A DNA stretch of 32,441 nucleotides from IMG/VR virus record IMGVR_UViG_2541047895_000011. One strand, given 5' to 3'. The position numbers were made by a program, and so were the translations under genes. Below, one piece after another: positions 1-32,441 of this stretch. Under the pieces are notes generated by a model, which saw only the letters and a list, made by a program, of their open reading frames with translations, searched no databases and was not told the DNA's origin. The stretch is from a virus. Taxonomy: Duplodnaviria > Heunggongvirae > Uroviricota > Caudoviricetes. Each line of letters starts with the position of its first letter. The first letter of the stretch is position 1.

Positions 1-1011
1 TTATAACGTCACTCCGCCTTTTAGTGGATTCAGAGCGACGGCATTTTGCAGGTAGTCAGGCGCAAGGTGCGCATAGGCCATCGTCTGCTGAATGCTCGCA
101 TGTCCCAGAATCTGTTGCAGTGCGATTATATTGCCCCCGTTCATCATGAAATGGCTTGCGAATGTATGCCGCAGGATGTGGGTTGCCTGATTGGGTGGTA
201 TATCAGGTTTCACTCTGCGTAAAATCCCGCAAAATTTCTCATAATCAACTTTGAATAATTTGGCGCTTGCCTCCTCTTTAACTTTTTTCTCCAGTTCCTC
301 AGAAATCGGCACGGTTCGCTTTTTACCGTTTTTGGTTTTCAGGAAGGTAACCCTGCAATTTGTAATCTGTGCTGGTTTTAGCGTGGCAACTTCCGTCCAT
401 CTTCCTCCAGTGCTCAGACATAAAAGCGCGACAAGTAAGTCATCACCAGCCAAAACATTTAACAGTTTTTCGATTTCTGCTTTTTCCAGGAACGTCATTT
501 CAGGGTTGGCCTCCGCCAGTGGCGGCAGTCCGTGAATTGGGTGTTGCCCGGAAAATTCATCCAATTGAATTAATTTTGTGAACATGCCGGATAATCGGTA
601 CATGTCACGGTTTATCGTTGCGGCACTGATACCATCACGTAGTCGTATGGAACGATAATCCATCAAAGCCCTTTTGCTCATCCGGCTCACTGGTATATCA
701 CCTATGCCGCTGATGGTTTTGAGTAGATGATTAAACTCTTTTGTTCCATGCTCGTGGTTTTGCCCGTGATATTTCCACCAGATGTCCAGCAACTCACTCA
801 AAGTTCGGCGGTCTGCTCGCTGGCCTCCCCATTCTTTCTGACTGGCATTGGCGATTGTGTATCGCTCAAATGCTAGTGCTTCAGCTTTTCTTTCGAATTT
901 CCTGCGGATGCGTTTTCCGTCGCGACCGCGAGGTCTAATGTCCACTTCATAGCGACCATCATCGAGCTTCTTAATTGCCATAAGAAAGCCCTCCGGCGCT
1001 GTATTCACCAT
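1..1011 (-). CDS. int: Phage integrase (tyrosine recombinase), P2 Int-like
   Basis: 336-aa ORF; C-terminal region has the tyrosine-recombinase pattern (HILRHTF ... LGHASIQQTMAYAHL with the terminal Tyr); lies immediately downstream of the C repressor on the same strand, as in the P2 C-int operon. Confidence 0.9.
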   Translation of the reverse strand: MVNTAPEGFLMAIKKLDDGRYEVDIRPRGRDGKRIRRKFERKAEALAFERYTIANASQKEWGGQRADRRTLSELLDIWWKYHGQNHEHGTKEFNHLLKTISGIGDIPVSRMSKRALMDYRSIRLRDGISAATINRDMYRLSGMFTKLIQLDEFSGQHPIHGLPPLAEANPEMTFLEKAEIEKLLNVLAGDDLLVALLCLSTGGRWTEVATLKPAQITNCRVTFLKTKNGKKRTVPISEELEKKVKEEASAKLFKVDYEKFCGILRRVKPDIPPNQATHILRHTFASHFMMNGGNIIALQQILGHASIQQTMAYAHLAPDYLQNAVALNPLKGGVTL

Positions 1012-3237: not shown

Positions 3238-3509
3238 GTATTCGTATTGAAATTGGCGAACGTTATGTCGTTACCAGTGACAGCTTTCAGTTTATTCTCC
3301 ACGAGAAAAAGAGAGCTGAAAGCGGTAAAAATGCCGGTCAGGAATGGCTGGCGGTAGTTGGTTATTACCCGAAATTAAGCCAGCTCGTTTCCGGCCTGAT
3401 GCATCACGATATTCTGACCGGAAGCGCAAAATCTTTTGCTGATTTAAACGCGCAGGTTGAGCAACTCAGCAAGCGTTGTTCAGAGGCTTTTGGCTCACAT
3501 GGCCGTTAA
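3234..3509 (+). CDS. Hypothetical early protein (position of P2 orf83)
   Basis: 91-aa ORF; its stop overlaps the start of A. Confidence 0.5.
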   Translation: MSIRIEIGERYVVTSDSFQFILHEKKRAESGKNAGQEWLAVVGYYPKLSQLVSGLMHHDILTGSAKSFADLNAQVEQLSKRCSEAFGSHGR

Positions 3510-5808
3510 AGCCTCCGGGCATTTTGTCCCTCCGTCAGCATTTGCCGCAGGCACCGGTAAGACGTTTACCGGTGCTTATGCATGGAACGCGCCACGCGAG
3601 GCCGTCGGGCGCGAAAGACCCCTTACACGTGACGAGATGCGTCAGGTGCAAGGTGTTTTATCCACGATTAACCGCCTGCCTTACTTTTTGCGCTCGCTGT
3701 TTACTTCACGCTATGACTACATCCGGCGCAATAAAAGCCCGGTGCACGGGTTTTATTTCCTCACATCCACTTTTCAGCGTCGTTTATGGCCGCGCATTGA
3801 GCGTGTGAATCAGCGCCATGAAATGAACACCGACGCGTCGTTGCTGTTTCTGGCAGAGCGTGACCACTATGCGCGCCTGCCTGGAATGAATGACAAGGAG
3901 CTGAAAAAGTTTGCCGCCCGTATCTCATCGCAGCTTTTCATGATGTATGAGGAACTCTGCGATGCCTGGGTGGATGCGCATGGCGAAAAAGAATCGCTGT
4001 TTACGGATGAGGCGCAGGCTCACCTGTATGGTCATGTTGCTGGCGCTGCACGTGCTTTCAATATTTCCCCTCTCTACTGGAAAAAATACCGTAAAGGACA
4101 GATGACCACGAGGCAGGCATATTCTGCCATTGCCCGTCTGTTTAACGATGAGTGGTGGACTCATCAGCTTAAAGGCCAGCGTATGCGCTGGCATGAGGCG
4201 TTATTGATAGCTGTCGGGGAGGTCAATAAAGACCGTTCTCCTTATGCCAGTAAACATGCCATTCGTGATGTGCGTGCGCGCCGTCAGGCAAATCTGGAGT
4301 TTCTTAAATCGTGTGACCTTGAAAACAGGGAAACCGGCGAACGCATCGACCTTATCAGTAAGGTGATGGGCAGTATTTCTAATCCTGAAATTCGCCGGAT
4401 GGAGCTGATGAACACCATTGCCGGTATTGAGCGTTACGCCGCCGCAGAGGGTGATGTGGGGATGTTTATCACGCTGACCGCGCCGTCAAAGTATCACCCG
4501 ACACGTCAGGTCGGAAAAGGCGAAAGTAAAACCGTCCAGCTTAATCACGGCTGGAATGATGAGGCATTTAATCCGAAGGATGCGCAGCGTTATCTCTGCC
4601 GTATCTGGAGCCTGATGCGCACGGCATTCAAGGATAATGATTTACAGGTCTACGGTTTGCGAGTCGTCGAGCCACACCACGACGGAACGCCGCACTGGCA
4701 TATGATGCTTTTTTGTAATCCACGCCAGCGTAACCAGATTATCGAAATCATGCGTCGCTATGCGCTCAAAGATGATGGTGACGAAAGAGGAGCCGCGCGA
4801 AACCGTTTTCAGGCAAAACACCTTAACCGGGGCGGTGCTGCGGGATATATCGCGAAATACATCTCAAAAAACATCGACGGCTATGCACTGGATGGTCAGC
4901 TCGATAACGATACCGGCAGGCCGCTGAAAGACACTGCCGCGGCTGTTACCGCATGGGCGTCAACGTGGCGCATTCCGCAATTTAAAACGGTTGGCCTGCC
5001 GACAATGGGGGCTTACCGTGAACTACGCAAATTGCCTCGCGGCGTCAGCATTGCTGATGAGTTTGACGAGCGCGTCGAGGCTGCACGCGCCGCCGCAGAC
5101 AGTGGTGATTTTGCGTTGTATATCAGCGCGCAGGGTGGGGCAAATGTCCCGCGCGATTGTCAGACTGTCAGGGTCGCCCGTAGCCCGTCGGATGACGTTA
5201 ACGAGTACGAGGAAGAAGTCGAGAGAGTGGTCGGCATTTACGCGCCGCATCTCGGCGCGCGTCATATTCATATCACCAGAACGACGGACTGGCGCATTGT
5301 GCCGAAAGTTCCGGTCGTTGAGCCTTTGACTTTAAAAAGCGGCATCGCCGCGCCTCGGAGTCCTGTCAATAACTGTGGAAAGCTCACCGGTGGTGATACT
5401 TCGTCACCGGCTCCCACGCCTTCTGAACACGCCGCAGCAGTGCTTAATCTGGTAGATGACGGTGTTATTGAATGGAATGACCCGGTGGTCGTGAGGGCGC
5501 TCAGAGGCGCATTAAAATACGGCCTGAGAAGACCAAACCGTCAGCAAAGAAACGGAATACCGTTAAAACCGCATGAAATAGCACCATCGGCCAGGCTGAC
5601 CCGGTCAGAACGAATGCAAATTACCCGTATCCGTGTTGACCTTGCTCAGAACGGTATCAGGCCTCAGCGATGGGAGCTTGAGGCGCTGGCGCGTGGGGCG
5701 ACCGTAAATTATGACGGGAAACAATTTACGTATCCGGTTGCTGATGAGTGGCCGGGATTTTTACAAACAGAAATTGTTTTTGGGATTAATAAGTTATCTC
5801 TAAGCTAA
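3499..5808 (+). CDS. A: Rolling-circle replication initiator endonuclease, P2 gpA-like
   Basis: Large ORF (track 3457..5808); ATG at 3499 (MAVKASG...) overlaps the upstream stop and matches the P2 A N-terminus as I recall it; contains the tyrosine-rich motif GYIAKYISKN typical of rolling-circle initiators. Confidence 0.9.
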   Translation: MAVKASGHFVPPSAFAAGTGKTFTGAYAWNAPREAVGRERPLTRDEMRQVQGVLSTINRLPYFLRSLFTSRYDYIRRNKSPVHGFYFLTSTFQRRLWPRIERVNQRHEMNTDASLLFLAERDHYARLPGMNDKELKKFAARISSQLFMMYEELCDAWVDAHGEKESLFTDEAQAHLYGHVAGAARAFNISPLYWKKYRKGQMTTRQAYSAIARLFNDEWWTHQLKGQRMRWHEALLIAVGEVNKDRSPYASKHAIRDVRARRQANLEFLKSCDLENRETGERIDLISKVMGSISNPEIRRMELMNTIAGIERYAAAEGDVGMFITLTAPSKYHPTRQVGKGESKTVQLNHGWNDEAFNPKDAQRYLCRIWSLMRTAFKDNDLQVYGLRVVEPHHDGTPHWHMMLFCNPRQRNQIIEIMRRYALKDDGDERGAARNRFQAKHLNRGGAAGYIAKYISKNIDGYALDGQLDNDTGRPLKDTAAAVTAWASTWRIPQFKTVGLPTMGAYRELRKLPRGVSIADEFDERVEAARAAADSGDFALYISAQGGANVPRDCQTVRVARSPSDDVNEYEEEVERVVGIYAPHLGARHIHITRTTDWRIVPKVPVVEPLTLKSGIAAPRSPVNNCGKLTGGDTSSPAPTPSEHAAAVLNLVDDGVIEWNDPVVVRALRGALKYGLRRPNRQQRNGIPLKPHEIAPSARLTRSERMQITRIRVDLAQNGIRPQRWELEALARGATVNYDGKQFTYPVADEWPGFLQTEIVFGINKLSLS

Positions 5809-5930
5809 GACGCTCAAAGCAAGAGATTATTTTACTGTACGTAGCCATCTGGAATTGTGGCTGTGTTAAAACGCTCGAGATTTTTTGGATATCCAGTTAT
5901 ACTCCGCTTAGAAATCATTCGGAGACTAAG

Positions 5931-6977
5931 ATGGCGGTAAAAGTTGTTGATCTTTTTTGCGGTGCTGGCGGTTTAACGCACGGCTTACATTTGGCCGGAT
6001 TGGACGTTGTCGCAGGCATTGATTTAGAAGGTGAGTGTCGTGTTGCATACGAAAGCAATAATGATGCACTTTTTATTGAAAAAGATATATCTCTGGTGAC
6101 AAAAGATGAAATCGAAAATCTTTTTGAAGGGGCAAGTGTTAAAGTATTGGCCGGATGTGCACCTTGTCAGCCATTTTCTAAATATACTCAGGGAAAAGAT
6201 AAAAAAAATGATAAAAAGTGGCCGTTATTATATGAGTTTGAACGTTTAATAAAAGACACGAAACCAGAAATAGTTACAATGGAAAACGTTCCTGATGTGA
6301 CAAAACATTCTGTCTATGATGATTTTTATAATACCTTAATAGCATTGGGTTATTATGTTTGGGCAAATAAGATTGAATGTGTAGATTTTGAGGTTCCGCA
6401 AAACAGAGTGAGGCATGTATTACTCGCATCTAAATTTGCGCCGATTTCTCTGATGAAACCACAAACATCGGTAAAGCTGACAGTTAGGGATTGCATTGGT
6501 AATTTACCTTCGATTGAAGCGGGACAAGCAGATCCAAAAGACCCTCTCCATAAGGCGAGTAGATTGAGTGAAATTAATCTCAAACGTATTCTACATTCAA
6601 AACCGGGGGGGACATGGAGGGATTGGCCTGCTGAATTAATCGCTTCATGTCATGCCAAGAAAAGTGGGCAGGGATATGCCAGTGTTTATGGTCGTATGTC
6701 TTGGGATAAACCGAGTCCAACGATAACTACACTTTGTTATGGTTTTGGTAATGGACGTTTTGGTCATCCCGAGCAGCATCGTGCAATCTCACTTAGGGAA
6801 GCAGCATTACTTCAAACGTTTCCTGTTACATATTCATTTACCCAACCGGGCGAGCCGATCAAAATGAAAAATGTCGGGCGTATGATAGGTAATGCTGTTC
6901 CTGTAAACTTAGGTAAAGCGATTGGTCTTTCAATAGTACATCATTTGAAAGAGTTTCACCCCGCCGCTCTTAAATAA
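5931..6977 (+). CDS. DNA (cytosine-5)-methyltransferase, Dcm family
   Basis: 348 aa with motif I (DLFCGAGG), catalytic PCQ motif IV (GCAPCQPFS), ENV motif VI (MENVPDV), QNRVR motif VIII and a C-terminal GNAVPV motif; GGAG Shine-Dalgarno 6 nt upstream of the ATG; AT-rich compared with the phage backbone. Confidence 0.9.
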   Translation: MAVKVVDLFCGAGGLTHGLHLAGLDVVAGIDLEGECRVAYESNNDALFIEKDISLVTKDEIENLFEGASVKVLAGCAPCQPFSKYTQGKDKKNDKKWPLLYEFERLIKDTKPEIVTMENVPDVTKHSVYDDFYNTLIALGYYVWANKIECVDFEVPQNRVRHVLLASKFAPISLMKPQTSVKLTVRDCIGNLPSIEAGQADPKDPLHKASRLSEINLKRILHSKPGGTWRDWPAELIASCHAKKSGQGYASVYGRMSWDKPSPTITTLCYGFGNGRFGHPEQHRAISLREAALLQTFPVTYSFTQPGEPIKMKNVGRMIGNAVPVNLGKAIGLSIVHHLKEFHPAALK

Positions 6978-7675
6978 GCCTGAGTATCAAGATAAGTTTG
7001 TATATTTTCAAGGATGCAGTTGAGATAATGAAAAACTTCATCCTTCATTTCTGTTAGTGTATCAATAGATGTATCTCTGCCTTTGTTTCTAAATGATTCA
7101 GAACCATGAGCAAGGTCGTTTCTGGCCTTTTTTATTGGAAGTAAATTGCAACCATTTCGCGTTATTTCTGAATCTGTATCTGCTGAGAAGCCATATTTTT
7201 CAGCGACTTCTCTAATTTTTCTAGCATCAACATTTCCAGAAAATAACGGATTTTTATTTGATTGGATAAGTTTTTTGTGAGCGTTTAGCCACTCTTTAAA
7301 TATAACTTTTGCAATGTTCCCTTGTGAGAAATCTATTTTCCCATTTGGTGATTGTAAACTATGAAATGCTACTCTTGTAAGGTTTTCATTTACAGTGTCT
7401 GCACATAATGATTCATTAGACATTAAAACATTATGAATGTCTTCTATTGCATTGGAAATGGTTGCTTCAATGAGATTGTACAATATAATAAATGCATTAG
7501 CCTTTAAAATATGAGTCATGTCAATATCAATGGGTTGTTGTATAGGCGCATCGCTTGTATTCTCTTTATAGACTAGAGATGGTTTTTTGTTTATTAGTAA
7601 CTGAATGAATGAGAAGTATTCATTAATATCTTGCATTCTTTCTTGGAAAAGAATTTTACTTGTCATCTCCTCCAT
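6956..7675 (-). CDS. HEPN-like protein (candidate Rx4H motif, RNDLAHG), putative RNase effector
   Basis: 239-aa ORF, second gene of the leftward operon, 10 nt downstream of the DUF262 gene; near the C-terminus, KKARNDLAHGSESF fits the HEPN Rx4-6H signature; AT-rich. Domain call is by eye and not profile-verified. Confidence 0.55.
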   Translation of the reverse strand: MEEMTSKILFQERMQDINEYFSFIQLLINKKPSLVYKENTSDAPIQQPIDIDMTHILKANAFIILYNLIEATISNAIEDIHNVLMSNESLCADTVNENLTRVAFHSLQSPNGKIDFSQGNIAKVIFKEWLNAHKKLIQSNKNPLFSGNVDARKIREVAEKYGFSADTDSEITRNGCNLLPIKKARNDLAHGSESFRNKGRDTSIDTLTEMKDEVFHYLNCILENIQTYLDTQAYLRAAG

Positions 7676-7685
7676 TTACTTGGCC

Positions 7686-8831
7686 TCACTCCATATTTTC
7701 ATCTTCATTTTCATCTTCGTCGACAATATTTTCTGGAATGTCTTTCCCAAGCAACTTGTTTTTTACATATTCAATGCGTGCTTTAACTTTGGGTTTAGAG
7801 TTGCTGGCATCTGAACGTGTGTGCGTGATAAACTCTTTCGAGTTGATCCAGTCATCAATATTTTTAGGAACTAAATTGGGTTCTTCCTCTAGTGCTAATG
7901 TTGCACCGACGGCAAGAGCTTCGAAACGAATCCTAGGAACAGTGGTGGCGTTTTTCACCTTTCTGAAACCATTTGGGAAATGTGTATTAATGAATTGGCA
8001 CATTTTATGAAATTTTTCCGCCAGCATAGCTGCGTTTTCATCTGTATATTCGGCATTTTTACGTTTTAAATAGGTTGTAAGAAATTCATCAACGCTTTTT
8101 CTGAAATCAAGATATTCTTCAGTGTAGGCAAAGTAGCGTAGTGCCAATTCTGGATATTCAGAGCGACGTTTTCTTGCATCTCCCAAAGGACAGATGCTAT
8201 GAAATAGAGGATCTTCGGAAATTTCATTGATAAATGCAAGGAATGGCCCATCATGGCTACCTTGCCGTTGTTCCATTGTTGTTAGTTTTTTTCCGCCAGT
8301 ATTCAGACGGTCAAAAATTTCCCTTCTTGTCTCTTCGTCACAATGTTCTGTAAGTTCAATCATTCGAATAGTTTTTCTATCAAAACGTAGGCGACGGGGA
8401 GTACTGAAATCAGAATATTTAAAACCATTGGCTGTGACTAATTTCTGCAGGCCTTCAAGAGTTAGTTTGTTATTGGTAAATTGGTGTAGGGTTCTTATTC
8501 GTTGGCTACCGTCAACAATTTCAAGTCTACCTTCATTTTCACCTGAACCAATATCGGCAACGAATATGTAAGGTATAGGAAGATTTAAAAGCAGAGATTC
8601 AATGAAACGGGATTTTTGCTTGTTGTTCCAGATAAACTCCCTTTGGTAGTCAGGTATAAAAAGCTCTGCCTCATCTTCTTCAAGACCATTCTGAAATTTG
8701 TCCACAATAACACTTATCGGGAACTCACGTATTTCATGGTCAGTGATTTTTTGCATTTCAACTATGCTTTGATCTAAAAGCTCCTTTTCTTCTTTAGTTT
8801 TTGGGGTATGTTCTGCTTTTTTTCTCGCCAT
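7686..8831 (-). CDS. DUF262 / ParB-like (GmrSD N-terminal-type) protein with acidic C-terminal tail
   Basis: 381 aa; N-terminal region has the DUF262 hallmarks (IPDYQREFIW followed by EIVDGSQRIRTL, a DGQQR-type motif); no recognisable DUF1524/HNH module; C-terminus is DEDENEDENME; first gene of the leftward operon starting near cos. Confidence 0.75.
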   Translation of the reverse strand: MARKKAEHTPKTKEEKELLDQSIVEMQKITDHEIREFPISVIVDKFQNGLEEDEAELFIPDYQREFIWNNKQKSRFIESLLLNLPIPYIFVADIGSGENEGRLEIVDGSQRIRTLHQFTNNKLTLEGLQKLVTANGFKYSDFSTPRRLRFDRKTIRMIELTEHCDEETRREIFDRLNTGGKKLTTMEQRQGSHDGPFLAFINEISEDPLFHSICPLGDARKRRSEYPELALRYFAYTEEYLDFRKSVDEFLTTYLKRKNAEYTDENAAMLAEKFHKMCQFINTHFPNGFRKVKNATTVPRIRFEALAVGATLALEEEPNLVPKNIDDWINSKEFITHTRSDASNSKPKVKARIEYVKNKLLGKDIPENIVDEDENEDENME

Positions 8832-8970
8832 GAGCTTATTATCCTACTATGCGTGTGATTGCATTAAATTGCATGTTAAACAAAAGCATAATCTATATCA
8901 GTCAATCAGCCAGTGGCAAGGTGTTGTGATTACAATGCAACTGCATTAGAACCGACTCATGAAGCGGGCG

Positions 8971-8989
8971 GGCGAGGCGGGGAAAGCAC
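8971..8989. other. Candidate cos site (19-nt P2-type cohesive end, GGCGAGGCGGGGAAAGCAC)
   Basis: Sequence matches the P2 cohesive-end sequence as I recall it, and sits where expected, between the A-side cargo and Q. Confidence 0.6.
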
Positions 8990-9158: not shown

Positions 9159-10193
9159 TCAGCCGTTGTCAGTGTCCAGTGAGTAGTTTTTAAAGCGGAT
9201 GACCTCCTGACCGAGCCAGCCGTTTATCTCGCGGATCCTGTCCTGTAGCGGGATAAGCTCATTGCGGACAAAGACCTTTGCCACTTTCTCAATATCGCCC
9301 AGCGACCCGACGTTTTCCGGCTTGCCACCCATCAACTGAAAGGGGATGCGGTGCGCATCAAGCAGGTCAGCGGCGCTGGCTTTTTTGATATTAAAAAAAT
9401 CGTCCTTCGTTGCCACTTCACTGAGCGGGATAATTTTAATACCGTCGGCTTTTCCCTGTGGGGCGTAGAGAAACAGGTTTTTAAAGTTGTTGCGGCCTTT
9501 CGACTTCACCATGTTTTCGCGAAGCATTTCGATATCGTTGCGATCCTGCACGGCATCGGTGACGTACATGATGTATCCGGCATGTGCGCCATTTTCGTAA
9601 TACTTGCGGCGGAACAGCGTGGCCGACTCATTCAGCCAGGCAGAGTTAAGGGCGCTGAGATATTCCGGCAGGCCGTACAGCTCCTGATTAATATCCGGCT
9701 CCAGCAGGTGAAACACGGAGCCGGGCGCGAAGGCTGTCGGCTCGTTGAAGGACGGCACCCACCAGTAAACATCCTCCTCCACGCCACGGCGGGTATATTT
9801 TGCCGGTGAGGTTTCCAGTCTGATGACCTTACCGGTAGTGCTGTAACGCTTTTCCAGAAACGCATTACCGAACACCAGAAAGTCCAGCACAAAGCGGCTG
9901 AAATTCTGCTGTGAAAGCCACGGATGCGGGATAAATGTCGAGGCCAGAATATTGCGTTTAACGTAAATCGGCGAGCTGTGATGCACGGCAGCACGCAGGC
10001 TTTTTGCCAGACCGGTAAAGCTGACCGGCGGCTCATACCATCTGCCGTTACTGATGCACTCAACGTAATCCAGAATGTCACGGCGGTCGAGTACCGGCAC
10101 CGGCTCGCCAAAGGTGAATGCCTCCATTTTCGGGGCGCTGGCGGTCATTTTTTTTGCCGCAGGTTGCGGTGTTTTCCCTTTTTTCTTGCTCAT
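9159..10193 (-). CDS. Q: Portal protein, P2 gpQ-like
   Basis: 344 aa, identical in length to P2 Q; adjacent to cos and transcribed leftward together with P. Confidence 0.9.
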   Translation of the reverse strand: MSKKKGKTPQPAAKKMTASAPKMEAFTFGEPVPVLDRRDILDYVECISNGRWYEPPVSFTGLAKSLRAAVHHSSPIYVKRNILASTFIPHPWLSQQNFSRFVLDFLVFGNAFLEKRYSTTGKVIRLETSPAKYTRRGVEEDVYWWVPSFNEPTAFAPGSVFHLLEPDINQELYGLPEYLSALNSAWLNESATLFRRKYYENGAHAGYIMYVTDAVQDRNDIEMLRENMVKSKGRNNFKNLFLYAPQGKADGIKIIPLSEVATKDDFFNIKKASAADLLDAHRIPFQLMGGKPENVGSLGDIEKVAKVFVRNELIPLQDRIREINGWLGQEVIRFKNYSLDTDNG

Positions 10194-23027: not shown

Positions 23028-23555
23028 ATGCAGCATTTAAAAAATATTACTGCGGGTAATCCCAAAACTATTGCCCAATATCAACTGACAAAAAATTTTG
23101 ATGTTATCTGGTTATGGTCTGAAGACGGAAAAAACTGGTATGAGGAAGTAAGTAATTTTCAGGAAGACACGATAAAGATTGTTTACGACGAGAATAATAT
23201 AATTGTCGGCATCACCAGAGATGCTTCAACGCTTAACCCTGAAGGTTTTAGCGTTGTCGAGGTTCCTGATATTACCGCCAACCGACGTGCGGATGACTCA
23301 GGTAAATGGATGTTTAAGGATGGTGCCGTGATTAAGCGGATTTATACGACAGACGAACAGCAGCAACTGGCAGAATCACAAAAGGCAACTTTACTTTCCG
23401 AAGCTGAATCCGTGATTTTGCCGCTGGAGCGCGCTGTCAGGCTGAATATGGCAACAGATGAGGAACGCAGCCGACTGGAAGCATGGGAACGCTACAGCGT
23501 TCTGGTCAGCCGTGTGGATCCTGCAAATCCTGAATGGCCGGAAATGCCGCAATAA
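23028..23555 (+). CDS. G: Tail fibre assembly chaperone, P2 gpG-like
   Basis: 175 aa immediately after H; size and position of P2 G. Confidence 0.85.
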
Positions 23556-23776: not shown

Positions 23777-24370
23777 ATGTTTACTAAGCGACGATTAAAA
23801 AATATTAACTGGGAGGCAAGTTCAGTGATTCTTGCTATGGTTCTCTTTGTTGGAAATATATTTTATACAAATCATCGTGATGATATAAGCATGGAGGCTG
23901 AGAGAGACAGTATCAGAACAATGTTTGCATATGAAATCGCTAATAACCATCGCGCTCTCACTTTTCTTGATAAAACGAGAAATATTGGCTTTGACGAAAA
24001 TTCGGAGCATTTTGTTGGCGAGCCTTTTGCCATTAATGTCGAATCATTAGGAGGGCCTCGCTTACAGATTGCATTAAACCAGACTGATAAAGTTTTTAAA
24101 GCCTACTTCAGTGAATTAAGTAAACTTGATAAAGAGGATGTTACTCTTCTTATGGACTATTACCATGAGCAAAGCATCCTGCTGGAGTGTGTAAAATCTA
24201 CGTTAGAGAAGATGAAAAGCAATAATGATATTAAAGTTGATATTGATGGTTACTTATTAGAAGAACACTTCATGAATGAGTTTAATCTTTCTAATATTTT
24301 GCTTAAACGCTATAGCCATTTGTTGTCACAACACCTCAAAAAACCTGAAACAAAAGATTTACATAATTGA
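23777..24370 (+). CDS. Hypothetical membrane-anchored protein at the P2 Z/fun cargo position
   Basis: 197-aa ORF in an AT-rich island between G and FI; N-terminal hydrophobic segment (SSVILAMVLFVGNIFY); a terminator hairpin follows downstream; no motif I recognise. Confidence 0.6.
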   Translation: MFTKRRLKNINWEASSVILAMVLFVGNIFYTNHRDDISMEAERDSIRTMFAYEIANNHRALTFLDKTRNIGFDENSEHFVGEPFAINVESLGGPRLQIALNQTDKVFKAYFSELSKLDKEDVTLLMDYYHEQSILLECVKSTLEKMKSNNDIKVDIDGYLLEEHFMNEFNLSNILLKRYSHLLSQHLKKPETKDLHN

Positions 24371-24699: not shown

Positions 24700-25890
24700 A
24701 TGAGTGACTATCATCACGGCGTGCAGGTGCTGGAGATTAACGACGGCACCCGCGTCATTTCCACCGTATCCACCGCCATTGTCGGCATGGTCTGCACGGC
24801 CAGCGATGCGGATGCGGAAACCTTCCCCCTCAATAAACCGGTGCTGATTACCAATGTGCAGAGCGCAATTGCAAAGGCCGGTAAAAAAGGCACGCTGGCG
24901 GCATCGTTGCAGGCCATCGCCGACCAGTCAAAACCGGTCACCGTTGTCGTGCGTGTGGAAGACGGCACCGGCGACGACGAGGAAGCGAAACTCGCGCAGA
25001 CCGTTTCCAATATCATCGGCACCACTGACGAAAACGGTCAGTACACCGGACTGAAAGCCCTGATGGGGGCTGAGTCGGTTACCGGCGTTAAACCGCGCAT
25101 TCTTGGTGTGCCGGGGCTGGACACCAAAGAGGTTGCCGTCGCACTGGCATCGGTATGCCAGGAACTGAATGCATTCGGGTATATCAGCGCATGGGGCTGT
25201 AAAACCATTTCCGAGGTGAAAGCCTACCGCCAGAATTTCAGCCAGCGTGAGCTGATGGTTATCTGGCCGGATTTCCTCGCATGGGATACGGTCACCAGTA
25301 CCACCGCCACCGCGTATGCCACCGCCCGTGCGCTGGGGCTGCGCGCTAAAATCGACCAGGAGCAGGGCTGGCATAAAACGCTGTCCAACGTCGGGGTAAA
25401 CGGTGTTACCGGCATCAGTGCATCTGTATTCTGGGATTTGCAGAAGTCTGGCACTGATGCTGACCTGCTGAACGAGGCAGGCGTCACAACGCTGGTTCGC
25501 CGCGACGGTTTCCGTTTCTGGGGTAACCGTACCTGCTCCGATGACCCACTGTTCCTCTTTGAAAGCTACACACGCACTGCGCAGGTACTGGCCGACACGA
25601 TGGCTGAGGCGCACATGTGGGCTATTGATAAGCCCATCACCGCAACGCTGATTCGCGACATCATTGACGGCATCAATGCCAAATTCCGCGAACTGAAAAA
25701 CAACGGTTATATCGTGGATGGCACATGCTGGTTCAGTGAAGAATCCAACGATGCGGAAACCCTCAAGGCCGGAAAACTGTATATCGACTACGACTATACA
25801 CCGGTGCCTCCTCTCGAAAACCTGACCCTGCGCCAGCGTATTACTTCCAGATACCTGGCAAGTCTGGTCACCTCGGTTAACAGCAATTAA
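24700..25890 (+). CDS. FI: Tail sheath protein, P2 gpFI-like
   Basis: 396 aa; size and position of P2 FI. Confidence 0.9.
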   Translation: MSDYHHGVQVLEINDGTRVISTVSTAIVGMVCTASDADAETFPLNKPVLITNVQSAIAKAGKKGTLAASLQAIADQSKPVTVVVRVEDGTGDDEEAKLAQTVSNIIGTTDENGQYTGLKALMGAESVTGVKPRILGVPGLDTKEVAVALASVCQELNAFGYISAWGCKTISEVKAYRQNFSQRELMVIWPDFLAWDTVTSTTATAYATARALGLRAKIDQEQGWHKTLSNVGVNGVTGISASVFWDLQKSGTDADLLNEAGVTTLVRRDGFRFWGNRTCSDDPLFLFESYTRTAQVLADTMAEAHMWAIDKPITATLIRDIIDGINAKFRELKNNGYIVDGTCWFSEESNDAETLKAGKLYIDYDYTPVPPLENLTLRQRITSRYLASLVTSVNSN

Positions 25891-31457: not shown

Positions 31458-31538
31458 ATCCTCAATTTGCCTGCTGCTTAATGCATTGCAGATGATTTGC
31501 TTCCGTTATACTACCGTCAGTTGATAGCGGGAGTATTT

Positions 31539-32441
31539 ATGAATCAATCTTATGGACGGCTGGTCAGTCGGGCGGCGATTGCTGCGACGGCGATGGCTTC
31601 GCTGCTATTGCTGATTAAAATTTTTGCATGGTGGTATACCGGGTCGGTGAGTATTCTCGCCGCGCTGGTGGATTCGCTGGTGGATATCGGCGCGTCGTTG
31701 ACGAATTTACTGGTGGTGCGATATTCCCTGCAACCTGCCGACGATAATCACTCGTTTGGTCACGGTAAAGCTGAGTCCCTCGCGGCGCTGGCGCAAAGTA
31801 TGTTTATCTCCGGTTCGGCACTATTCCTGTTTTTGACGGGTATTCAACATCTGGTATCTCCAACACCGATGACAGATCCAGGCGTCGGGGTTATCGTGAC
31901 AATTGTGGCGCTAATTTGTACGATTATCCTTGTCTCGTTTCAGCGTTGGGTGGTGCGCCGGACGCAAAGCCAGGCGGTGCGGGCTGATATGCTACATTAC
32001 CAGTCTGATGTTATGATGAACGGCGCAATTCTGCTGGCGCTGGGGTTGTCCTGGTACGGCTGGCATCGCGCCGATGCTCTGTTTGCATTGGGGATCGGCA
32101 TCTATATTTTATATAGCGCGTTACGCATGGGATATGAGGCGGTACAGTCATTACTGGATCGCGCATTGCCTGATGAGGAACGGCAAGAAATTATTGATAT
32201 CGTGACTTCCTGGCCGGGTGTTAGCGGCGCTCACGATCTTCGCACGCGGCAGTCAGGGCCGACCCGCTTTATTCAGATTCATTTGGAAATGGAAGACTCT
32301 CTGCCTTTGGTTCAGGCACATATGGTGGCGGATCAGGTAGAGCAGGCTATTTTACGGCGTTTTCCGGGATCGGATGTGATTATCCATCAGGACCCCTGTT
32401 CCGTCGTACCCAGGGAGGGTAAACGGTCTATGCTTTCATAA
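31539..32441 (+). CDS. fieF: Cation-diffusion facilitator, ferrous-iron/zinc efflux pump FieF (YiiP)
   Basis: Track ORF 31497..32441; the ATG at 31539 with a GGAG Shine-Dalgarno gives 300 aa beginning [53 protein letters not shown], which I recognise as enterobacterial FieF; marks the host flank. Confidence 0.9.

Follow-up and report, generated by a model that had tools for sequence, protein, structure and literature searches.

The window, which is the whole 32,441-nucleotide stretch of DNA that was analysed (IMG/VR record IMGVR_UViG_2541047895_000011), is a P2-like prophage that is 100% identical to Peduovirus P24B2 across the region compared. Between P2 replication gene A (3457..5808), on its left, and portal gene Q (9159..10193), on its right, lie three genes: a C5 DNA cytosine methyltransferase gene on the plus strand (5931..6977; 348 aa) and, on the minus strand, a gene for a 381-aa protein with a DUF262 domain, a ParB-like nucleoside triphosphatase (NTPase), and a ParBDB-like C-terminal domain (7686..8831), followed by a gene for a 239-aa HEPN protein of the MAE_28990 family (6956..7675), both of which start with ATG. 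These three genes make up the whole insert, within which the GC content is 31-44% as compared with 52-58% in the flanks, and resemblance to other P2-like phages restarts at about 8935; positions 5931-8831 are one three-gene cassette that was brought in as a low-GC unit. The gpA/portal gap is a defence hotspot, which carries old and tin in P2 (Vassallo 2022; Rousset 2022), and the cassette does occupy this site, as was stated in a preliminary description of the DNA made from the sequence alone. With moderate confidence, the cassette is read here as a methylation-linked relative of the defence system PD-T4-2, in which a methyltransferase would act against phages together with a ParB-like NTPase as the sensor and a HEPN ribonuclease (RNase) as the effector.

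The assignment of the 381-aa protein, the predicted sensor or regulator, to DUF262 is confirmed by Pfam, in which GmrSD_N/DUF262 is its sole match (E 4.7e-28, residues 52-190). In PADLOC, the best match is to NsnA (4.9e-55, residues 31-358), and PD-T4-2_A is also matched over nearly the full length (9.2e-35, residues 59-356); matches to SspE, HEC-05, and HEC-06 are confined to the N-terminal motif region. There is also a weak REase_II match (8.9e-7) on the DUF262 N-domain, with no recognisable REase fold in the cassette. A DUF1524/HNH domain, the absence of which had been correctly noted at the outset, is not found by Pfam or PADLOC in any of the three cassette proteins. Since the NsnA match extends over residues 31-358, the C-terminal half is a ParBDB helical domain, as in NsnA, rather than an HNH nuclease; an acidic tail lies at the C-terminus. 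The published description of NsnA defines three motifs, of which motif II is DGxQR, and all of them can be read on the minus strand: QREFIW (motif I, QRxxxW; 8628-8645), the nucleotide-binding motif DGSQR (motif II, D107-R111; 8499-8513), which had earlier been given in error as DGQQR, and FDRLN (motif III, FxxxN; 8301-8315). When scored over 20 homologs, down to 53% identity, the three motifs are invariant (in motif I, Y62, Q63, R64, and W68; in motif III, F173, D174, R175, L176, and N177), and so is a C-terminal VPRIRFE...TRSDASNS block.

The AlphaFold model of this protein is moderate (pLDDT 77.5), with a C-terminal domain near 90. Searching the PDB with the model by Foldseek returns ParB N-domains, SspE, KorB, and sulfiredoxin as the top matches. 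Thus, the ParB/Srx theme that had been anticipated does appear, but every one of these matches is weak and individually non-significant (E of at least 0.27), and consequently it is the sequence profile and the motifs that support the ParB assignment. Sequence searches of the PDB yielded no useful relative for either the 381-aa or the 239-aa protein, and no NCBIfam model matched either of them, although RefSeq names both.

Short proteins that match only the DUF262 N-domain (about residues 18-200 of the 381-aa protein) are encoded by approximately 270 lytic phage genomes, which include many large phages of Escherichia, Klebsiella, Cronobacter, and other enterobacteria (records H45-H80, for example RB49, JSE, KP15, Miro, and vB_CsaM_GAP32). 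Identity is 22-33% among the matches listed, and most are annotated as hypothetical. They may represent ParB-like proteins of the phages, with decoys against DUF262 defences as another possibility.

The 239-aa protein, the predicted nuclease effector, matches HEPN_MAE_28990 (7.6e-18) and HEPN_RiboL-PSP (7.6e-7) in Pfam. The segment KKARNDLAHG, which had been singled out as an Rx4H motif, indeed contains the catalytic motif RNDLAH (R185-H190; 7106..7123, minus strand), and 28 homologs, with identities as low as 39%, show no variation at R185, N186, L188, A189, H190, or G191; the HEPN fold predicted for this protein is also confirmed. The HEPN family is large, with 1,661 clusters at 50% identity, and its close members are standalone proteins of 158-264 aa. 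As described, the HEPN gene (7675..6956 in the direction of reading) is co-directional with the DUF262 gene (8831..7686), and 10 nt (7676..7685) separate the DUF262 stop from the HEPN ATG. On the minus strand, this junction reads ...ATG GAG TGA GGCCAAGTAA ATG. The proposed GAGG Shine-Dalgarno is therefore present, 8 nt before the ATG, but it does not lie wholly inside the gap; rather, it straddles the DUF262 stop codon, using the last two bases of the stop together with GG, the two bases with which the gap opens. Translational coupling of the DUF262 and HEPN genes is suggested by homologous loci, where the junction is either an overlap of 4 or 1 nt or a spacer of 0-3 nt. The HEPN start itself is ambiguous (7664-7675), given that the open reading frame (ORF) opens with MEEM and that a 239-aa (Met1) as well as a 236-aa (Met4) form is present in public records; Met1 has the GAGG 8 nt upstream.

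What the preliminary description overlooked is the third gene, for it presented the pair as an isolated two-gene operon when the convergent methyltransferase belongs to the cassette. The methyltransferase matches DNA_methylase in Pfam (1.8e-54) and TIGR00675 dcm (2.9e-36), its catalytic motifs, with the catalytic Cys79 in GCAPCQ, are intact, and its gene runs convergent with the HEPN gene, overlapping the HEPN 3' end by 22 nt. Its best-conserved block, residues 200-300, comprises the target-recognition region and motif IX, a pattern that suggests one fixed specificity throughout the family.

The linkage of the three genes was followed in 79 distant loci that were gathered by means of a HEPN profile and are mostly cyanobacterial, with others from Buttiauxella, Kluyvera, Thalassotalea, Runella, Cytophagales, and Parabeggiatoa. 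About 77 of the 79 have DUF262 immediately upstream of HEPN, the remainder being cut by contig ends, and a methyltransferase ortholog (51-89% identical) is adjacent in 30 of the 79. These neighbouring orthologs are mostly convergent, with a 4-nt overlap; in three rearranged loci (L007, L025, and L052), the methyltransferase is instead upstream and co-directional, yet adjacency is retained. Pairwise distances within 31 trios are correlated (r = 0.93 for DUF262 and methyltransferase, 0.83 for DUF262 and HEPN, and 0.82 for HEPN and methyltransferase), with HEPN evolving fastest. When the window proteins are compared with those of Moraxella catarrhalis prophages (BLASTP/tblastn), identity is 59% for the methyltransferase, 45% for DUF262, and 29% for HEPN; as judged by sequence identity, then, none of the three genes is better conserved than that of the methyltransferase.

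A neighbour-joining tree of 58 full-length DUF262 proteins, rooted with the pair from E. coli plasmid pVE155, has methyltransferase-positive loci on every deep branch, from Moraxella to cyanobacteria. Methyltransferase-negative loci amount to a single derived clade of cyanobacteria and two isolated losses, one of which, locus L073, retains an 82-aa remnant of the methyltransferase. Within that clade, the DUF262-HEPN pair is flanked by housekeeping genes, and decay is frequent: about 22 Microcoleus loci encode a DUF262 shortened to 177 aa, and HEPN has been broken in two. Closer to the window, the same three genes are found in the P2 hotspot of Klebsiella michiganensis, Citrobacter, and K. aerogenes, while the Vibrio cholerae chromosome holds exactly these three between housekeeping genes. 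Among 5,426 complete E. coli genomes, seven carry the cassette (three near-identical and four approximately 76-78% identical), all with all three genes; among phage records, the DUF262-HEPN pair occurs only in P24B2 and nine Moraxella prophages. Given the co-inheritance, the hotspot occurrences, and the V. cholerae locus, the mobile and selected unit is the trio, not the pair.

These linkage data bear directly on whether the locus might simply hold two unrelated cargoes, namely an orphan phage methyltransferase stacked beside a separate DUF262-HEPN module that serves in defence or as a toxin-antitoxin-like addiction pair. Unrelated genes are often stacked in P2 hotspots (Vassallo 2022), two-gene versions without the methyltransferase exist, and in the window the methyltransferase and the pair are on opposite strands. 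However, the trio recurs in Moraxella prophages, Cytophagales, Parabeggiatoa, many cyanobacteria, and the V. cholerae chromosome, and its tight junctions, its correlated distances, and an adjacency that survives rearrangement all disfavour such stacking, which is consequently considered highly improbable.

Several features of the distant loci deserve separate mention. The approximately 22 Microcoleus loci with a short DUF262 (among them L005, L008, L016, L021, L027-L029, L032, L034-L037, L040, L042, L043, L047, L055, L057, and L075) are syntenic and encode a DUF262 protein of about 177 aa with the N-terminal domain only (about 6330-6870) next to a full-length HEPN; L008 and L016 additionally have a split HEPN gene. 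These could represent either a decaying locus or a minimal variant. A conserved 220-aa ORF (cluster c3, e.g. L040 7774-8436, minus strand), which has no match in Pfam, is convergent on HEPN in 27 Microcoleus-type loci (L004-L057), where it takes the position held by the methyltransferase in other loci. A substitute methyltransferase in the methyltransferase-less loci was considered and ruled out, because the flanking genes there are housekeeping genes. Two marine cyanobacterial loci carry an extra, partial HEPN copy (L018 7682-8265 and L024 7706-8006), which corresponds to the C-terminal half (query residues ~116-238) and lies directly 3' of the full-length HEPN.

Among systems with a demonstrated function, the nearest in design is PD-T4-2 from E. 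coli ECOR65, listed as "DUF262, HEPN", which protects K-12 against T4 and whose deletion in ECOR65 restores T4 plaquing (Vassallo 2022). By HHpred, PD-T4-2A is a DUF262 protein (99.7%), and PD-T4-2B is either HEPN_RiboL-PSP (97.8%) or HEPN_MAE_28990 (96.9%) (Vassallo 2022). PD-T4-2A/B is recorded under RCO39066.1, on contig QOYX01000002 at 338334-339873. The cassette has the same two-gene core, in which a DUF262 protein that lacks DUF1524 is followed by a co-directional small HEPN of the RiboL-PSP/MAE_28990 type; both occur in E. coli, and P2-like prophages house many of the systems recovered in the same Vassallo screen. In contrast, a methyltransferase is missing from PD-T4-2, whose B protein, at about 165 aa, is shorter than the 239-aa HEPN of the window. 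Furthermore, the DUF262 partners in the cassette family always score NsnA above PD-T4-2_A in PADLOC. This ranking and the failure of the HEPN to match PD-T4-2_B place the family as a sister of PD-T4-2 and not as PD-T4-2 itself. Thus, as far as the PADLOC profiles can set them apart, the cassette is a methyltransferase-linked sister that shares the PD-T4-2 design.

The 381-aa protein also has the ParB-DUF262 plus ParBDB architecture of NsnA, a component of Menshen (NsnABC). Here, too, there are differences, since an ORF for the NsnB ATPase is not present in 5809-8934, where the gene downstream of DUF262 encodes HEPN instead, and NsnC (inPIN plus nuclease) is found neither as an ORF nor as a PADLOC match. 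The preprints on DARNA (PD-T7-3) and on Hma-embedded systems were ruled out as mechanistic precedents because they concern different proteins. DUF262 is absent from the main text of the Rousset 2022 and 2026 P2-hotspot papers.

The idea that a sensor is paired here with an effector fits the domains and motifs just described, but it is not new. Besides PD-T4-2 itself, RefSeq names for these genes in E. coli genomes already exist ("DUF262 domain-containing protein", "MAE_28990/MAE_18760 family HEPN-like nuclease", and "DNA cytosine methyltransferase"), and an operon of a MAE_28990 HEPN, a ParB, and a DNA methylase was tabulated in 2013 (Anantharaman et al. 2013, Table 1). The architecture of DUF262 plus HEPN is therefore already known and unsurprising to a specialist. 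All three components of the 2013 operon class match the window: a MAE_28990 HEPN with a conserved Rx4-6H, a ParB-like neighbour, and a DNA methylase neighbour conserved across taxa. The entry itself is one computational line, without phage context, phylogeny, or experiment.

In that survey, the ParB protein was read as the deoxyribonuclease (DNase) of a restriction-modification (R-M) system, and HEPN proteins of this kind were read as a PrrC-like second line of RNases (Anantharaman et al. 2013). If so, the DUF262 protein would cut unmethylated DNA, the methyltransferase would protect self, and the HEPN protein would be held inactive by the R-M proteins until a phage neutralised restriction, as is the case for PrrC with EcoprrI. 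Such a classical R-M system with a back-up RNase would account for the co-inheritance of the three genes as well as for the convergent, overlapping methyltransferase, a layout that is typical of R-M gene pairs. Like PrrC-EcoprrI, the cassette links a HEPN ribonuclease to a modification or restriction module, and in both a phage is expected to trigger the cutting of RNA. However, PrrC is a HEPN fused to an ABC ATPase inside a type I R-M operon, that system has no ParB-like protein, and homology is limited to the HEPN fold. Later work on DUF262 favours the role of an NTPase or sensor over that of a DNase: in GmrSD, BrxU, and SspE, DUF262 is the NTPase/sensor, and it is DUF1524, absent in the window, that cuts. 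The C-terminal half of the 381-aa protein aligns with the non-catalytic ParBDB of NsnA, and PD-T4-2 is protective without a methyltransferase. For these reasons, the R-M explanation is regarded as rather unlikely.

The preferred reading, a methylation-linked relative of PD-T4-2, instead takes its logic from SspE and GmrSD, in which DUF262 is an NTPase and a sensor of the state of the DNA that licenses a nuclease (cited reviews). The motifs QRxxxW, DGxQR, and FxxxN are shared with SspABCD-SspE and with GmrSD/BrxU, and in Ssp, as here, a DUF262 protein is paired with a cognate DNA-modification module. The systems differ in that SspE, GmrSD, and BrxU carry a fused DUF1524 HNH nuclease, whereas the window has a separate HEPN, and in that the Ssp mark is phosphorothioate as opposed to 5-methylcytosine (5mC) for the window cassette. 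By analogy with SspE/GmrSD and the Ssp modification module, the ParB-like protein would read the methylation laid down by its partner. In this model, the methyltransferase would mark host and prophage DNA at a fixed site, and the DUF262-ParBDB protein would bind DNA and sense whether the mark is present, with the DGSQR NTPase site serving as a conformational switch, as in SspE/GmrSD. Upon encountering unmarked foreign DNA, it would release or activate a HEPN dimer, with which it may form a complex; the Rx4H site of the dimer would then cut RNA (tRNA, rRNA, or mRNA), and phage growth would stop, probably at a cost to the infected cell. The specific version of this scheme, in which a 5mC mark is read by the ParB-like NTPase and unmarked DNA leads to RNA cleavage by HEPN, so that the cassette would behave as an R-M-like system without a DNase, is put forward as a tentative possibility, and its polarity, with the unmethylated target as the trigger, is uncertain.

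Several observations weigh against a methylation-linked defence. PD-T4-2 works, and the pVE155-type pair exists, without a methyltransferase, and a whole cyanobacterial clade retains intact two-gene versions between housekeeping genes; since these versions persist, the core pair is not necessarily toxic when the mark is missing. The HEPN of the window does not match the PADLOC PD-T4-2_B model, nor do those of its relatives from pVE155, Mcat29, and L004, the last of which has only weak matches of the Cas3b and CARF-HEPN/Csm6 types (E 5e-4 to 2e-3). Among the top 150 representatives of the HEPN family, all are standalone, and none is a DUF262-HEPN fusion. The model of the DUF262 N-domain is only moderately confident, in addition to which its structural matches are individually non-significant, and a literature search yielded no experimental paper on the MAE_28990 family, the 2013 survey being the sole mention. 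Finally, GmrSD and BrxU attack modified rather than unmodified DNA and thus have the opposite polarity.

This last point leads to a type IV-like explanation, in which DUF262 would recognise modified phage DNA, such as the hydroxymethyl- or glucosyl-cytosine of the T-even phages, and activate HEPN, with the methyltransferase serving elsewhere, for example, in shielding the prophage from host restriction. T4 is the phage on which PD-T4-2 was selected and against which it protects, GmrSD and BrxU target modified cytosines, and the DUF262 protein of Dazbog is thought to recognise methylated DNA. Nevertheless, this explanation leaves unaccounted for a methyltransferase that is the best conserved of the three proteins and whose evolution parallels that of the sensor in different phyla and also outside phages. 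In addition, a partner that writes 5mC would risk self-targeting if the sensor tolerates 5mC. A type IV-like mode is therefore considered quite unlikely.

The co-inherited methyltransferase makes a modification-linked system the more likely logic, in place of a sensor and an effector that act by themselves. In reviews, PD-T4-2, Menshen, and Dazbog, all validated defences, appear as still uncharacterised members of the DUF262 systems that lack DUF1524, and the methyltransferase gives a direct handle on what a ParB-like sensor reads. Were methylation state to prove to be the signal, epigenetic discrimination of the R-M style would be linked to an RNase effector, that is, to abortive infection. 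Its compactness and its location on an E. coli phage should make the cassette amenable to experiment. PADLOC v2 would not call the locus, given that its models recognise the DUF262 half only, and such loci are thus probably under-counted in defence surveys.

The remaining features of the window concern its setting. At one end is a phage integrase gene (1-1011, minus strand) and at the other a cation-efflux (FieF-like) host gene (31497-32441, plus strand); the window thus consists of an integrated prophage and a single chromosomal gene from its flank, rather than of a packaged phage genome. Upstream of the DUF262-HEPN operon lies a non-coding region (8832..8934, minus strand) with a sigma-70-like promoter from 8919 to 8890, which is a candidate only, as the promoter scan found 9 sites against 9.8 expected and thus did not exceed chance. 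Since the promoter and terminator counts in the scan are no better than those in shuffled sequence, no operon signals are claimed, and an Rfam scan of the window gave no match. The linear P24B2 record terminates at window position 8970, immediately before GGCGAGGCGGGGAAAGCAC at 8971-8989, which we take to be the 19-nt cohesive end (cos) of P2. Given where this record ends, the cassette would be the right-most cargo of the packaged genome, beside the presumed cos.

A second P2 variable locus (Z/fun) lies at 23777-24370. Here, a 197-aa ORF on the plus strand is situated between the tail-fibre genes H/G, which end at 23555, and the sheath gene FI, which begins at 24700. It has no Pfam match and only a weak PADLOC match to PDC-M46A (0.0046), but it matches phrog_3829, a family of unknown function, at 1.5e-132. 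This ORF may be a second, uncharacterised hotspot cargo of the prophage.

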